Shown: positions 11,281 through 17,036 of the stretch, in pieces
How the letters are laid out: each line of letters starts with the position of its first letter
How positions within the stretch are numbered: position 1 is the stretch's first letter
DNA from: Silvanigrellaceae bacterium
Lineage (GTDB): Bacteria; Bdellovibrionota_B; Oligoflexia; Silvanigrellales; Silvanigrellaceae
NCBI GenBank assembly: GCA_049423385.1
Contig: JBMSQQ010000031.1
Span: 1-34,789, forward strand
Reading direction: 5' to 3'
Length of the DNA: 34,789 nucleotides
Program-made: the position numbers and the translations under genes
The notes under the pieces: model-generated
What the model saw: only the letters and a program-made list of their open reading frames with translations
Told to the model about the DNA's origin: nothing
Databases searched by the model: none

Positions 11281-11360
11281 ACACAGGGCTGCATTTCCTA
11301 GTGGACTGATTTGTACTCCCGCCGGTTACTCTGGAATTGAGTCGCCGTCGGGAGATTTTC

Positions 11361-14300
11361 ATGGACGTATCCTCATCTATTGAGACATATCTTGGTGCAG
11401 AGATTGAATCCGAAAGATGCAGGTTGATTCCATCTTTGGTTGATTCAAAAGACCCTTGTCTGTCTGCATTGAGACAATGGTCGGTCCTCTCGTTTCTGCC
11501 TTCGCGACTTGAAAAGGTGCAAGTGGCAAGTTCCCTCAGCTTGAGCAAAATGCCCAATGGAAGTTGGACGGTTTGCAGTCACCTGCTGAGGGATCAAGAA
11601 CAGGATGTCGTTGGAAATGCAATCAACTCAATGACACGTTCAAAAGTCAGAGGCTTCGCACATCGTGCGTTCCATTACTTCAAGAGTCCAGAACGTCCTC
11701 AACGCATCCTTTACTGTCTTGCCAGATATTGCGAAGAAGCAGAAGACAGAAGAATTGCAGAACAGCTCGCGCCTACACTCGCTTCGGACTTGTCGGACGC
11801 CTATCTCGCGAGGTCCTTCAATGCGCTTTACAAGCATGGAATAAAAAGTGATGCAGCATTGAAAGTCGCAATGGAACTGGTTGAATCACACATTGATGCG
11901 ACCAACATGGACAGAAAGGCAGCTGTCGCCGCAATCACTTATTTGTTCTTTGCAGGGTCTCGCAGCCAAATATTGGAAATTCAAAGGATTCAGGACAAGG
12001 TGAGCATTCCCGAGCTCCGACGCCTTCTGAATTGGGGATTGCAGGAAATTGCCAATCTTTCAGAACAAAGCAGTCCAGATGAAAAGCAATTTTCATCAAC
12101 TCGATTCTGGAAAAACAATTTGGGTGCGATAAATCCAAACTTCACTGGCTATGGGTGCTTTGAAGCAGATGACCTTGTCTCAGGATTGGATGAGCTGGAC
12201 AAAAACAAAAATCTTCCCAAAAATCCTCAACTGACAGAGAGAGTTCTCAGTCTTGGGGACCTTTCCTGCTCCAACTGGCTCGCAAATCACAAGGAATTTG
12301 GAATCCAGAATGTTTTGGAAAGCGATCCTGTCGCAGTTCAGATCTGGAAAAAGCATGCAACACAGAACTCTGAGGCATTCAGGGATTCGGTCTTGAACTT
12401 CTCGCATTCATCTTTTTGGCACAGTGAAAGCCCCGAATTGCTCGCTCTCGCGCTTCCACCGCTGTTGATCAGAAGTCACTCTTACCTCAAGGCCAACTGG
12501 CTCTCGAAGACGGACTATTGTGACGACAAGCTGGCAATCAACATTCTCCTTGGTTTGTTTCTTGCGATTGAAAATGACGTTTTGAACGAGTCGACTCCAG
12601 AGAGCAATTTTGATGAAACCATCAATGAAATCTGCTCCTGCCTCGCATCTCGTCTGCATAAATCCTCAAAATCGGGAGACAAGACTCATCTTGAAATTTT
12701 GAGCTGCGTCATTGGCACGCCCCTGCGCAACCGAAACATTGCCGACCTTGTCTCGAATTGCACATTGTCGATTGGGTGGTGGGACATTGCACGTGCATTT
12801 CTTCACGAAACACCATCTCAAGACATCGAGTCGGTGCTGAGTCGATTCGACTCGCTTGCAAAACAGCCCCCTGGAGGCTCGTTTGATGAAAAAGAAATAT
12901 TGACTCTCGCGCGCACAACGGCGTTGTCAATCCTCAACGCCAAAAACAACAAGCTCGATGAAAAAACAAAACAGGAACTGAAGAAATTCGCTCAACTGTC
13001 GGAATTTCTTGACCCGAACAGCAACGTGTCCACTCTATCCTCAGACAGTGAAGAAGAAACACAAGAAGGAGAAGAACAGGAAGGAGTTGCCGCAGATTGG
13101 TCTGGACATGCCGTGGTTGATCGGCCAATTGCGCGCTGGGGTGCAATTTTGGAAGTTCAAGTCATTTCCAAGGGCAATCCCGAACAATCGAGCCATGGGT
13201 CGAAAAGCACAATAGAGGAAATGCTCATCGAAGCCATGAGGACTGCAAGCCATGTTGAAAAAAGGTGGATCGCCAGAGCTCTTGCCACTCTTGGATCGGA
13301 CAAAGCAGTCAAGGCGCTTTTGTATCAGGGTCTGCAACACATAGACTCTGAATTTGTGGCCCACACCATTCGTGAGCTGCTCCCATCCGCACACCCTCGT
13401 GCTCAGCAAGCCCTGATCCGCTGTGTTGGAAGAAACGCAATTTCCGACGAGTTGAAGCTTGGAATTCTTGAGGACATGACAATCCACAATCCTGCAGAGA
13501 TACTTCAGGAGCTGAGGACGCTTGAGATTCTCCGCCTGCCACAACATATCGACGATGCCGTCAGGGACGCTGTGGGCCGAGTGGCGGCAATGATTGATGA
13601 AAGTGAATCGATTCAAACCGAAGCCGACCAGGGCAAAATCATTCGAATCAGTGGACAGGACATTGATTCAACCATCCGAAACCTTCTTCCAAATCATGAT
13701 CAACTCAATGTTGATTCCAGGTCTGCATTGCGAACGGCGGAAATGATACTCGTGCAAAGCAAGAGCTGGACTCAGGGCGGCATGGACCTGAGCCCGATCG
13801 TGAATATGCACTGCAAGGCTGTTGAACTTGTATTAAGAGAATCTTTCGAGCCATTTACAGATGCGCTGTTGCGCAGGGGACAGTTGTCCAGAAAATTGGA
13901 TATCCTTGGATACGCACGACCAATTCCGGAAAAAATGCAGGTTTTTGAAGACACACTTGCAAATCTGCCAATCATTAAAACAATTCCCTACTTTTCGAAA
14001 TTCAAATTACGCAAAATGCTCCGTGGTGTCTGCCTGTATCGTCCGGGAAAGCGGTTCACACTCGATGGTCCCAAGGCCTTCGCACTGTTTTTTCTTGTCG
14101 TGTCTAGACAGAGTTGTCCATTCGGTTTGGACAAGATGCTGACTCTCGGCTTTGAAAACGATAAAGACCTCTTCGAATACATCAAACTCATTCATTCCCT
14201 GCAGGACAGCAGAAATCGTGCAGTTCACGAAGGCCTCACCTGGGAGGCAAAAGATGAGATTGAATCCATGCGGGCACAAGCTTTCAAAATTATCGAAATC

Positions 14301-14378
14301 ACGCTCAAGATCAAAAGGCATCTGGTGGCAGGCGACGGCAAGCAGCAAGCGAGTGGCGCAATCGGATTGGGAGCATAA
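11361..14378 (+). CDS. large (~1005 aa) HEAT-repeat-like protein with C-terminal HEPN-like domain
   Basis: Long ORF with SD GGGAG before ATG 11361. HEAT-like helical repeats (e.g. KRWIARALATLGSDKAVKALL), an acidic linker, and C-terminal DLS..KAVE and RNRAVH motifs. The domain call is by eye. Confidence 0.65.
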   Translation: MDVSSSIETYLGAEIESERCRLIPSLVDSKDPCLSALRQWSVLSFLPSRLEKVQVASSLSLSKMPNGSWTVCSHLLRDQEQDVVGNAINSMTRSKVRGFAHRAFHYFKSPERPQRILYCLARYCEEAEDRRIAEQLAPTLASDLSDAYLARSFNALYKHGIKSDAALKVAMELVESHIDATNMDRKAAVAAITYLFFAGSRSQILEIQRIQDKVSIPELRRLLNWGLQEIANLSEQSSPDEKQFSSTRFWKNNLGAINPNFTGYGCFEADDLVSGLDELDKNKNLPKNPQLTERVLSLGDLSCSNWLANHKEFGIQNVLESDPVAVQIWKKHATQNSEAFRDSVLNFSHSSFWHSESPELLALALPPLLIRSHSYLKANWLSKTDYCDDKLAINILLGLFLAIENDVLNESTPESNFDETINEICSCLASRLHKSSKSGDKTHLEILSCVIGTPLRNRNIADLVSNCTLSIGWWDIARAFLHETPSQDIESVLSRFDSLAKQPPGGSFDEKEILTLARTTALSILNAKNNKLDEKTKQELKKFAQLSEFLDPNSNVSTLSSDSEEETQEGEEQEGVAADWSGHAVVDRPIARWGAILEVQVISKGNPEQSSHGSKSTIEEMLIEAMRTASHVEKRWIARALATLGSDKAVKALLYQGLQHIDSEFVAHTIRELLPSAHPRAQQALIRCVGRNAISDELKLGILEDMTIHNPAEILQELRTLEILRLPQHIDDAVRDAVGRVAAMIDESESIQTEADQGKIIRISGQDIDSTIRNLLPNHDQLNVDSRSALRTAEMILVQSKSWTQGGMDLSPIVNMHCKAVELVLRESFEPFTDALLRRGQLSRKLDILGYARPIPEKMQVFEDTLANLPIIKTIPYFSKFKLRKMLRGVCLYRPGKRFTLDGPKAFALFFLVVSRQSCPFGLDKMLTLGFENDKDLFEYIKLIHSLQDSRNRAVHEGLTWEAKDEIESMRAQAFKIIEITLKIKRHLVAGDGKQQASGAIGLGA

Positions 14379-14384
14379 TCGATC

Positions 14385-15308
14385 ATGGGTCTGAGAATAC
14401 AAACCAACATTCAATCGATAAACGCTCAACGCCAATTGGGATTGTCAACGTCACGATTGAATTCCCATATGGAAAAACTCTCAAGCGGCTTTCGCATCAA
14501 CAAGGCTGCCGATGATGCTGCGGGATTGGCCATCAGTGAAAACTTGAGAACAGAAGTTCGAGGAATGCAGCAGGCTCGACGAAATGCCCAGGAGGGAATC
14601 AGCCTCGTCCAGACCGCCGAAGGTGGATTGAACTAAATCACAAACATTCTTTCGCGACTCCGGGAACTCACAGTCCAGTCTGCCAGCGACACGATTGGAC
14701 CGGTCGAGCGTGGTTTTTTGCAAAAAGAATTTGGTTCACTCAAAGAAGAAATCGACCGCATTGCGAATTCTGCCGACTTCAACGGCACGAAGCTCCTCGT
14801 GGGAACGAACCAGTTCCCCATGGAGATTGAGGAGCAAGGCAATACGCCGCCACTGGAAATTCAGGTTGGTACGAATTGGCATCAGATTCTTGATGGCCGG
14901 GAACAAGAAAATCCGGTCAACATTATTCGCATCGATGTCCAAAACATGAACGCCCTGACAGACGGTCCTGGTTCCCTTGACCTCGGGAGTTCCCAAAATC
15001 CGGAGGGAGCACGAATCGACACGAAGGAGTTGGCGCAACTGAGCATGGATAAGATTGATCGCGCGATTGAAAAAGTGAATGGTTACCGTGCAGACCTGGG
15101 CGCGGTCCAAAACCGGCTGCAAAGCGCAGTGAGCAACCTTGGCATTCGAATCGAAAACCTCGACGCGGCCAAGTCACGAATAAAAGATGCTGATTTTGCT
15201 GAGGAAACTGCCGGAATGACCCAGCAACAGATCCTCCAGCAGGCAGGTGTCGCTGTGCTCTCCCAGTCGAACCAGCTGCCCCAATTGGCGCTCAAACTTT
15301 TGGGTTGA
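14385..15308 (+). pseudogene. fliC: flagellin interrupted by an in-frame TAA at 14634-14636 (nonsense allele or sequence error)
   Basis: N-terminal flagellin motifs ([37 protein letters not shown]). After the TAA the same frame continues ITNILSRLRELTVQSASDT and ends in the C-terminal flagellin domain (RADLGAVQNRL, SRIKDADFAEE, QLALKLLG). Confidence 0.9.
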
Positions 15309-15375
15309 ATTGCCCGAGTCTTTCATATAAGACGCCGAACCCTCGAGGAATTTCTCGGGTCTATCTGAGGCGTCA

Positions 15376-16299
15376 ATGTTCTCATCAAACAATACTTCAA
15401 AGATTTTCGTGCGGAATGTCACCGTGCTGGATTGCGCTGTCTGGACCCTCAACAAGGGGCCTGTTGGCAGGTCCTGGTCGGTCGATGTGGAATGGTCTGG
15501 CCAGACCGACTTTGAAGGCGTGGTGATCGATTTTTCGAATGCAAAGAAACTTGCCAAGAAAGTGATTGACGATGAATTTGACCATCGCCTGATCATTTCA
15601 AGCAAGTCCGTGTCCAAGCGGTCCAATGGAAGAATCCTTTGTCTTCCTGCGTTGCACAGTCAACACGAAGACCGCTTTTTGCTCGAAACATACTCTGATT
15701 CTCTTGCAATATTGGACCAAAATATTCTCGAGGAATTGACTCGCGATTCGCTTGGATTGCTCGAGGCCGAAATTGCAAATGCAATTTTGAAAAAATCTCC
15801 GGAAAACGTCAGCAACGTTAAAATTCGCCTCACTCCCCACGCACAGATGACAAGCCCACGCTATTTCAACTACTTGCACAGCCTCAGACTTCACTCGGGG
15901 AACTGTCAACGATTTCATGGTCACTCAAACATCATAGAAGTTTTCAAAAATGACAGTTTGGATGAGAACGCTTCAATAGATGCTGCAAACCTCCTGAACG
16001 GTAAATACCTGATCGCTGACTGCTACTTCAAAACTCCTGAGGATTCTGTCTTGCTTTCCGAGATCGACGCCATCCTCAATGGTTTTGAAATGAACTCCGA
16101 CCAATACACATGGCTTTCGTACGAAGGGACTCAAGGGGTTGTGAATGTTCGTGCTCCGCGCAGCCGCATCATCACGATGCCCTCGGAAAGCACAATTGAA
16201 AACATAGCCTCTTGGCTTTTTCAGAGTCACTTCAATGCCTCTGCCGAGATGAGGGTTGAAGCTTACGAAGGTCATCATAAAGGCGCGATTTTCCCATGA
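15376..16299 (+). CDS. queD: QueD-like 6-carboxytetrahydropterin synthase, long two-domain form
   Basis: Segments GVVIDF..K....D..FDH, H.L..H.GNCQRFHGH (Cys/His metal motif) and STIENIA. Coupled to queE. Confidence 0.75.
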   Translation: MFSSNNTSKIFVRNVTVLDCAVWTLNKGPVGRSWSVDVEWSGQTDFEGVVIDFSNAKKLAKKVIDDEFDHRLIISSKSVSKRSNGRILCLPALHSQHEDRFLLETYSDSLAILDQNILEELTRDSLGLLEAEIANAILKKSPENVSNVKIRLTPHAQMTSPRYFNYLHSLRLHSGNCQRFHGHSNIIEVFKNDSLDENASIDAANLLNGKYLIADCYFKTPEDSVLLSEIDAILNGFEMNSDQYTWLSYEGTQGVVNVRAPRSRIITMPSESTIENIASWLFQSHFNASAEMRVEAYEGHHKGAIFP

Positions 16300-17036
16300 G
16301 CTCCCCAGTCTCTTTGCTGGTGAATGAAATCTATCCCTGTCTGCAGGGAGAGGGAATCAATCTCGGAACACCTTCCATCCTGGTCAGGTTGCAAATCTGC
16401 AACCTCCGCTGCTCATGGTGCGACACGCCATACACCCATACTGCCAAAAGCGATCCTATGGATTCGAACGACAAAAGCAGCAAACAGCGGTTCCAACGGA
16501 TGCTGATTTCAAAAATCGTCGAAGAAATTTCCAGACATTCGACCACACGCCATGTCATATTGTCGGGCGGCGAACCAACTCTTCAGAATTTTTCGTCACT
16601 TCTCGAGCAACTCTCTCAGACGCACTCGATAGAAGTCGAAACAAATGGAACTCAAATTCCTCATCAGCTGCACAGTACTTTTCAGTTCAGTCATTATCGA
16701 ATGGCACAGTGGAATATTTCACCCAAAGGCAGGAACGCGGGAGAAGATGTTGATTTTGAAGCACTGAAGCACTGGGCAGATCTTTCCAGGACTCAAGACA
16801 AAGTCTTCTTCAAGTTTGTTGTCAGACAGAGGCATTGGCAGAACGACGCCGAAGAAATATTCGAAATTTCCGAAAAACTTTCATTGCCCACCGAGAGAAT
16901 ACTGGTCATGGCTGAAGGCACAACTGCCGAGAGTCAGCTCAACAATTCGTGGCTGGAGAAGATTTGCTTGACGCGGGGATGGAGAATGAGTCCCAGGCTT
17001 CACGTCCTGATTCATGGTCCGCGCCGAGGCGTCTGA
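16296..17036 (+). CDS. queE: 7-carboxy-7-deazaguanine synthase (radical SAM)
   Basis: NEIYPCLQGEG, CNLRCSWCDT (CX3CX2C), SGGEP, VETNG, ISPK, KFVV and R.SPRLH. ATGA overlap with queD. Confidence 0.92.
   Translation: MSSPVSLLVNEIYPCLQGEGINLGTPSILVRLQICNLRCSWCDTPYTHTAKSDPMDSNDKSSKQRFQRMLISKIVEEISRHSTTRHVILSGGEPTLQNFSSLLEQLSQTHSIEVETNGTQIPHQLHSTFQFSHYRMAQWNISPKGRNAGEDVDFEALKHWADLSRTQDKVFFKFVVRQRHWQNDAEEIFEISEKLSLPTERILVMAEGTTAESQLNNSWLEKICLTRGWRMSPRLHVLIHGPRRGV

Follow-up and report, generated by a model that had tools for sequence, protein, structure and literature searches.

A conserved HEAT-repeat protein of the Oligoflexia with a C-terminal HEPN domain, a putative domesticated endoribonuclease

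The DNA analysed here, hereafter the window, is a stretch of 34,789 nucleotides from Silvanigrellaceae bacterium (assembly GCA_049423385.1, contig JBMSQQ010000031.1, positions 1 to 34,789, forward strand). It contains a gene, termed the HEAT-HEPN gene, whose product was described in an earlier note, made from the DNA letters, as a HEAT/PBS-like repeat protein with an acidic linker and a C-terminal HEPN-like ribonuclease motif. The open reading frame of 1005 codons plus stop is intact on the forward strand, and the motif positions quoted in that note all match the window protein (Table 1). A TTG codon at 11337, eight codons upstream, is an alternative start that would give a protein of 1013 residues, whereas the ATG-form start is common to 22 of 22 aligned orthologs. 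The protein has no hydrophobic stretch suggesting a membrane segment, and GC content is flat, that of the gene being the same as that of its surroundings. The immediate neighbours are an aldehyde dehydrogenase gene upstream and a flagellin gene 6 nucleotides downstream, with no adjacent small antitoxin gene of the RnlB/LsoB type. The other genes of the window have housekeeping functions and include those for CoaBC, an acyltransferase, spermidine synthase, MurG, TsaE, glutathione synthetase, YceG and YidC.

Table 1. Features of the HEAT-HEPN gene and of the adjoining flagellin gene, in window coordinates (for the four short strings located in the translation, the residue and nucleotide given are single positions).
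Feature	Residues	Nucleotides	Strand	Basis or remarks
HEAT-HEPN gene (type A)	1-1005	11361..14378	+	ATG start, 1005 residues plus stop; open reading frame and translation
N-terminal helical module	1-555	11361..13025	+	acidic, pI 5.7
LLRDQEQDVV	75	11583	+	motif located in translation
Acidic low-complexity linker	556-578	13026..13094	+	composition: 0 K+R, 8 D+E
SSDSEEETQ	560	13038	+	motif located in translation
Conserved DW-G...D-P..RW motif, then HEAT/PBS-type repeats	579-745	13095..13595	+	sub-threshold Pfam, family profile
EKRWIARAL	633	13257	+	motif located in translation
HEPN domain, basic	780-995	13698..14345	+	helix 1 784-800, helix 2 811-839, helix 3 934-957, helix 4 961-995
DLSPIVNMHCKAVE	809	13785	+	motif located in translation
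Helix-2 motif K819-A-V-E822-L-V-L-R826	819-826	13815..13838	+	Ex3[KR] motif
Insert between HEPN helices 2 and 3	841-933	13881..14159	+	93 residues, three-helix, pI 10.0
R951-N-R-A-V-H956, Rx4H motif	951-956	14211..14228	+	C-terminal end of helix 3 (DSSP of model)
Last codons of HEAT-HEPN gene (GGGAGCATAA)		14369..14378	+	contain Shine-Dalgarno-like GGGAG of flagellin gene
Flagellin gene		14385..15311	+	starts 6 nucleotides after HEAT-HEPN stop; translation

Judged from its sequence, the protein is built of two modules, an acidic HEAT/PBS-like solenoid of about 750 residues with an acidic linker and a basic C-terminal HEPN domain (isoelectric point (pI) 9.4), the rest of the protein being acidic. 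The N-terminal module (residues 1–555) matched no Pfam family; residues 1–560 resemble HEAT-repeat clusters by language-model features only (score 0.93), and residues ∼6–233 match the N-terminus of Oligoflexales proteins. The acidic linker lies where it had been noted, between the acidic N-terminal module and the remainder of the protein, and both its length and its sequence vary among orthologs. Beyond it, residues 620–691 gave sub-threshold matches to Pfam HEAT_2 (E 0.016, 15.9 bits versus a cut-off of 27.7) and to HEAT_PBS. HEAT-type Pfam matches at E≤0.01 were obtained in 23 of 26 relatives, being above the cut-off in 13 of the 26, and a profile of the family retrieved designed HEAT-like alphaRep proteins from the PDB sequences at E 5.6e-30. 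The latter search gave HEAT/alphaRep matches only and none over the HEPN part, and an NCBIfam scan of the window protein gave no match. The HEAT assignment is clear and firm at the family level but sub-threshold in the window protein itself.

In the published definition (PMC3710099), the HEPN fold has a core of four helices, with an insert separating helices 2 and 3. An Rx4-6H motif lies where helix 3 ends and the loop leading to helix 4 begins, its arginine is followed by a polar residue (N, D or H), and helix 2 bears an acidic residue, typically within Ex3[KR]. An AlphaFold2 model of residues 757–1005, obtained from an alignment of 105 family members (A2), is all-helical with a mean pLDDT of 93.6 and a pTM of 0.90, and contains the four-helix core together with the insert between helices 2 and 3. 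In the model R951...H956 closes helix 3 with the polar N952 after the arginine, the loop 958–960 follows, and helix 4 of the core corresponds to what had been noted as a final amphipathic helix. E822-x3-R826 is located within helix 2. Similarity to solved HEPN domains was also evident. HEPN-type proteins occupied the top 10 of 10 rows in a structural comparison against 48,161 chains and the top 12 of 12 rows in a second comparison against 991 chains, the closest folds being those of RnlA and LsoA. The language-model features of the domain resemble the RnlA-DBD and HEPN_RnaseLS clusters (0.92 and 0.89). As modelled, the C-terminal domain is a HEPN fold with a complete and invariant catalytic signature, in agreement with the HEPN-like domain and R/H motif proposed from the letters, and it carries the acidic residue of helix 2.

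Taken alone, the presence of an RNxxxH string is not beyond chance. The window protein contains three Rx4-6H matches, compared with an average of 4.6 in shuffles that preserve composition, and 6.45% of 2000 shuffles contain RNxxxH. What makes the motif meaningful is its conservation and its position. Of the three matches, R951/H956 alone is kept in 23 of 23 orthologs. R951 and H956, whose conservation the earlier note had named as a check, are invariant together with K819, K882, R916 and N952 in 105 of 105 aligned family members. All 107 of the 107 proteins of the type found in the window (type A) have E822 and R826, with Asp at position 822 in the paralogous type B described below. Thirty positions are invariant across the 107 type-A proteins and all are within the HEPN domain; besides E822 and R826 they include much of the insert, namely F878, S879, K882, K885, R898, F899, T900, D902 and K905. 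No stretch of the protein is more conserved than the insert, which has R916 also among its invariant residues. Compared with the window protein, the Silvanigrellales orthologs show an identity of 67–98% in the HEPN domain, 42–83% in the HEAT part, 21–88% over residues 1–250 and 16–64% over residues 251–560, the least conserved part. Relative to one close ortholog, nonsynonymous divergence (dN) is 0.024 in the HEPN domain and 0.10–0.28 elsewhere, with synonymous divergence (dS) saturated.

Relatives of the protein were sought at several scales. A word-indexed search returned 91 homologs, of which the full-length ones of ∼1000 residues (those named Silvanigrella, Fluviispira and Pigmentibacter) cover 94–100% of the query and those of ∼830 residues match chiefly over the C-terminal third. 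A search of 1.84 billion representative proteins with residues 757–1005 matched 132 of them, in each case either at the C-terminus of a protein of 550–1030 residues or in a fragment. With one genome per species from 185,579 species, relatives are encoded at 108 loci; the titles of 80 of these read Silvanigrellales, Oligoflexales, Oligoflexus, Pseudobacteriovorax or Bdellovibrionota, or are generic and probably mislabelled names of metagenome-assembled genomes. In a phylum sample of 131 genomes, all listed as belonging to the window's class or closer, the full-protein profile matched 113 genomes and a HEPN-only profile matched 111 (73 of the 83 high-quality genomes), with family counts of 22/22 (f18), 21/22 (f19), 30/32 (f1) and 0/4 (f15). 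The gene thus looks to be an inherited core gene, passed on vertically and near-universally within the class Oligoflexia.

The position of the gene is fixed in an order-specific manner. In Silvanigrellales-type loci (n=23) aldehyde dehydrogenase is encoded upstream in 19 and flagellin directly downstream in 21, the remaining two loci ending at a contig edge, and genes for QueD-like and QueE proteins then follow the flagellin gene, with truncated contigs as the exceptions. In Oligoflexales-type loci (n=57) the neighbours encode BamA (36 loci), a hypothetical protein of 326 residues (43 loci), FabG (38 loci) and FabH (39 loci). At the 43 loci that have it (for instance L031:4125-5105, reverse strand), the ∼326-residue protein, which has no Pfam family, is divergently transcribed immediately upstream of the type-A gene. 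It is a possible partner of the type-A protein in that order; no match to it was found in the genome of the window, although this was a search with one query and is not evidence of absence. The housekeeping surroundings and the lack of an obvious antitoxin had both been pointed out earlier for the window; the same immediate neighbours recur in 19 (aldehyde dehydrogenase) and 21 (flagellin) of the 23 related loci, and PADLOC applied to the neighbours yielded generic superfamilies only (ABC ATPase, radical SAM and subtilase). The features expected of an anti-phage gene, namely a patchy distribution, a variable location and a defence neighbourhood, are not seen for the HEAT-HEPN gene, and its distribution and position are the opposite of how defence islands behave and do not resemble those of mobile cargo.

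A second, diverged HEAT-HEPN copy (type B), ∼27% identical in the domain, is present in the genome of the window. Split between the ends of two contigs (C171, L084: 47-1204 and 1363-3276; C109, L082: 2-880), it retains the K, R, N and H residues, with D in place of E. In a tree of 106 domain sequences, 16 type-B rows are split from 90 type-A rows with an SH-aLRT support of 100, and nine Silvanigrellales type-A rows form one group, also with a support of 100. Type B was found in several families of the class, and the pair reflects an ancient duplication in the Oligoflexia. The type-B gene directly follows recA in the genome of the window and in two other genomes of the genus (L086 and L088), and its context differs in two genomes of other families (L087 and L089). 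At L082 the stop codon of the type-B gene overlaps the start of an open reading frame of 281 residues.

The junction with the flagellin gene is tight in the window and in 20 related loci. The exact string GGGAGC is present at the end of the HEAT-HEPN gene in 11 of these 21 sequences, with GGAG-like purine runs in the others, and the conserved '...G(L/M)GA' C-terminal tail of close orthologs is probably due to the constraint imposed by the Shine-Dalgarno sequence of flagellin. No terminator-like site was seen between the two genes, and a promoter and terminator scan around the HEAT-HEPN gene gave counts not above those of shuffles. A sigma-28-like -10 element ([GC]CGA[TA]A) was absent from the 200 nucleotides preceding the flagellin start, both for the window and for 17 of the 20 related loci; L006, L018 and L048 gave the sole matches, each of them GCGAAA. 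Across the 131 genomes, the HEPN domain and flagellin (PF00669) occur together in 107, neither occurs in 11, flagellin alone in 9 (6 of which are <80% complete) and HEPN alone in 4, counts for which genome size, incompleteness and relatedness are confounders. Contigs from metatranscriptome libraries (runs X8 and X10) match the 3' part of the flagellin gene (14965-15314) with no differences listed. No RNA contig spans the junction, which is uninformative on co-transcription. The link between the HEAT-HEPN and flagellin genes is suggestive and constitutes a minority hypothesis.

We propose, with a probability of roughly 0.55, that the HEAT-HEPN protein is a domesticated and probably self-restrained HEPN endoribonuclease that acts on cellular RNA and has the HEAT solenoid for its adaptor or regulator. 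The earlier note had offered a domesticated regulatory role or autoinhibition as its alternative reading, and this is the reading favoured by the class-wide core-gene status and the lack of an antitoxin. In its favour, K819/E822 and R951/H956 are spaced as R255/E258 and R318/H323 of RnlA, each of which is essential for its activity (PMC8266594), an equivalence of spacing and helix position only. A metatranscriptome contig of 266 nucleotides (run X8) also matches 13844-14109 in the HEPN-coding region with no differences listed; the contigs from RNA libraries give hints of transcription in nature, with DNA carry-over a possible source. HEPN domains that keep Rx4-6H have been argued to be RNases (PMC3710099) and, by analogy with such proteins, the domain is predicted to be a metal-independent endoribonuclease. 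As in canonical HEPN RNases, dimerization between HEPN domains would probably be needed to form a composite active site, and the highly conserved basic insert is a likely substrate-binding surface. The acidic solenoid and linker probably serve as an adaptor for the basic nuclease face, as a means of self-restraint, or as both. Self-restraint of this kind would account for the tolerance of a potentially toxic RNase in the absence of an antitoxin. The role of the enzyme would be in the processing, or in the regulated decay, of the cell's own RNA.

Several observations weigh against this proposal. The domain is absent from 20 of the 131 genomes, including four near-complete genomes of one family, and the gene is therefore not essential for the class. 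The best Z score of the structural comparisons, 10.8, is within the chance range for helical bundles according to the comparison tool, and Foldseek of the domain model against the PDB gave no match at E≤0.001, although its insignificant top rows included Csm6 and LsoA. Because the Z score alone is within the chance range, the fold call rests on the consistency of the hits and the placement of the motifs; the check on an AlphaFold model that had been suggested earlier was positive in the structural comparisons but not in Foldseek. Pfam HEPN models did not match the window protein at E≤1 or the isolated C-terminal domain at E≤10, and among 53 members scanned at E≤10 HEPN_RiboL-PSP gave sub-threshold matches in two (E 0.03 and 0.19), both of them type-B proteins and both over the motif region. 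The absence of a Pfam match marks a new family and is compatible with membership in the HEPN superfamily, since the families of this superfamily are mutually very divergent (PMC3710099). An alignment of the domain family against E. coli RnlA with hhalign gave a probability of 0.26 and E 0.23 with the Rx4H motifs unpaired. 

The nature of the domain itself could be read in two other ways. A generic helical bundle carrying R-x4-H by chance is very improbable in view of the uniformly HEPN-type top rows of both structural comparisons and of the four hallmarks of sequence and topology, which occur in the prescribed places and are invariant. A non-catalytic HEPN domain that binds RNA, a nucleotide or a protein partner and works as a scaffold or regulator, as in Roquin, sacsin and the nucleotidyltransferase-associated HEPN proteins, deserves more weight but is still unlikely. 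The Rx4-6H motif has been lost in those HEPN families that serve as binding modules (PMC3710099), whereas here its R, N and H do not vary and the acidic position of helix 2 is kept as E or D across two paralog lineages.

The function could likewise lie elsewhere than in domestic RNA metabolism. Most prokaryotic HEPN families are components of conflict systems and repeat-plus-HEPN fusions are among those in Table 1 of PMC3710099, the closest folds to the domain are the anti-phage toxins RnlA and LsoA, and the PADLOC model PDLC02907 ('TPR') gave weak matches through its C-terminal ∼160 positions in 7 of 53 members, with a best E of 6.7e-4. These points are consistent with the sensor-nuclease originally suggested, in which the solenoid would sense a phage cue and unleash the HEPN RNase to abort infection, the protein being chromosomally fixed, antitoxin-free and similar in kind to abortive infection (Abi) proteins. 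Such a role is, however, distinctly unlikely for a domain found in 111 of 131 genomes of the class, in a gene of order-specific fixed synteny among housekeeping genes with no defence genes nearby, no antitoxin and the GC content of its surroundings, and with an effector domain under the strong constraint and slow evolution described above. The PADLOC matches are also marginal and, although they span the entire domain in three of the seven matching members, they are a lead to a possibly related TPR-fused protein of a defence candidate and nothing more. A regulator linked to motility, which would control flagellin or flagellar mRNA or be co-expressed with flagellin for another reason, is a little more doubtful again. 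The flagellin start 6 nucleotides past the stop codon, the GGAG in the last codons, the recurrence of flagellin downstream with no terminator-like site between, and the absence of HEPN from 11 of 15 genomes without flagellin compared with 9 of 116 with it all point in this direction. However, the Oligoflexales gene adjoins genes for BamA, FabG and FabH, and tblastn with the two halves of the window flagellin found it at 0 of 57 of those loci; one family (three genomes) keeps the HEPN gene without flagellin and three near-complete flagellated genomes are without the HEPN domain. The genomes that have neither are small, such that genome reduction confounds the association, and related genomes are not independent. 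Moreover, of about eight flagellin matches in the genome of the window, one alone adjoins the HEAT-HEPN gene.

The proposed domesticated HEPN endoribonuclease can be set against several known systems. RnlA and LsoA are HEPN toxins of the RNase LS family of E. coli (PDB 4i8o, 5hy3 and 6y2r). The domain has no detectable sequence relationship to them, and a search of the entire genome with PF18869 (HEPN_RnaseLS) at E≤10 gave nothing. Their N-terminal regions are TBP-like domains, in contrast to the HEAT solenoid found here, no antitoxin gene of the RnlB or LsoB type adjoins the HEAT-HEPN gene, and the insert between helices 2 and 3 is much longer, with 129 residues from E822 to R951 compared with 60 from E258 to R318 in RnlA. 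RnlA and LsoA are prophage or plasmid cargo, whereas the HEAT-HEPN gene is a core gene of a bacterial class. None of the features that place a protein in the RNase LS family (a PF18869 match, TBP-like N-terminal domains and an antitoxin) was found.

RNase L and Ire1, whose HEPN domain is of the KEN type, act on the cell's own RNA and are controlled by oligomerization. They share with the HEAT-HEPN protein the general design of an N-terminal repeat or sensor region followed by a C-terminal HEPN domain, a putative RNase in the present case; they differ in being eukaryotic, in combining ankyrin repeats with a kinase or pseudokinase domain, and, for RNase L, in the ligand 2-5A, whereas the protein described here has HEAT repeats and no kinase domain. 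The fusion of the KEN domain to ankyrin repeats is in Table 1 of PMC3710099. It is tentatively possible that the protein is a bacterial counterpart of this design, that is, a solenoid-restrained HEPN endoribonuclease encoded by a near-universal core gene of a whole class with an ancient, recA-adjoining paralog. Its cleavage of cellular RNA would then be regulated, and in the Silvanigrellales it may be coupled to flagellin expression through the flagellin ribosome-binding site in the last codons of the gene. Among prokaryotic proteins, the TPR-fused HEPN families LA2681 and C6orf70/DUF4209 share a helical-repeat solenoid and a C-terminal HEPN domain with Rx4-6H (PMC3710099); they have TPR rather than HEAT repeats and occur in restriction-modification or defence contexts, and their Pfam models did not match. 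A precedent for housekeeping RNA processing by a HEPN protein is Las1, the eukaryotic nuclease of the pre-rRNA internal transcribed spacer 2 (PMC3710099, PMC10942766), which acts together with the kinase Grc3 and lacks a HEAT solenoid.

The domain is a HEPN sequence family outside those reached by the Pfam, NCBIfam and solved-structure searches, in agreement with the earlier statement that no named family could be recognized, and its closest structural relatives are the RNases RnlA and LsoA. The HEPN superfamily and its fusions to repeats were already known (PMC3710099, Table 1). Novelty lies in the sequence family, in the HEAT-HEPN architecture and, most of all, in the conserved core-gene status with a paralog in one class. 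None of the papers listed in the literature searches, judged on titles and the starts of abstracts, is on a HEAT-HEPN family, and an earlier description may exist. About 100 species-level proteins are labelled 'hypothetical' or 'HEAT repeat' because the domain libraries searched miss the family. To our knowledge, prokaryotic HEPN nucleases come almost exclusively from conflict systems, namely toxin-antitoxin and Abi systems, CRISPR ancillary nucleases and retrons. If the proposal is correct, the protein would be a rare example, among prokaryotes, of a HEPN nuclease that lacks any antitoxin and has been domesticated for RNA decay of a housekeeping or regulatory kind. Its intact motif, fusion to HEAT repeats, vertical inheritance, early duplication and lack of an antitoxin would make it a natural system in which to ask how such an RNase stays harmless and useful, a question that cultivable hosts (Silvanigrella, Fluviispira and Oligoflexus) make accessible at the bench.

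The flagellin gene of the window carries an in-frame TAA codon at 14634-14636, where flagellins have Glu. The aligned codon is GAA or GAG in 18 of 20 homologous loci and the Glu codon lies one codon further along in the other two (L048 and L020), and contigs from two other studies (runs X1 and X3) read GAA, with a G at 14634, and show further differences at 14594 and 14615. Because Glu is found in the homologs and in these two assemblies, the TAA is private to the present assembly; the probable cause is an error of consensus or assembly among flagellin paralogs, of which there are eight matches, or else the codon marks a strain-specific pseudogene. An alternative genetic code was considered and rejected, as the homologs and both assemblies read Glu/GAA and other open reading frames are intact under table 11. 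Downstream of flagellin, at 15376-17036, lie a double-length QueD-like gene (307 residues, PTPS domain) and a QueE gene (radical SAM), an arrangement kept in most Silvanigrellales-type loci; the presence of 7-deazaguanine genes beside a putative RNase may be a coincidence. The sole Rfam or ARAGORN match in the window is a tRNA-Met (CAT) at 70-145 on the reverse strand.

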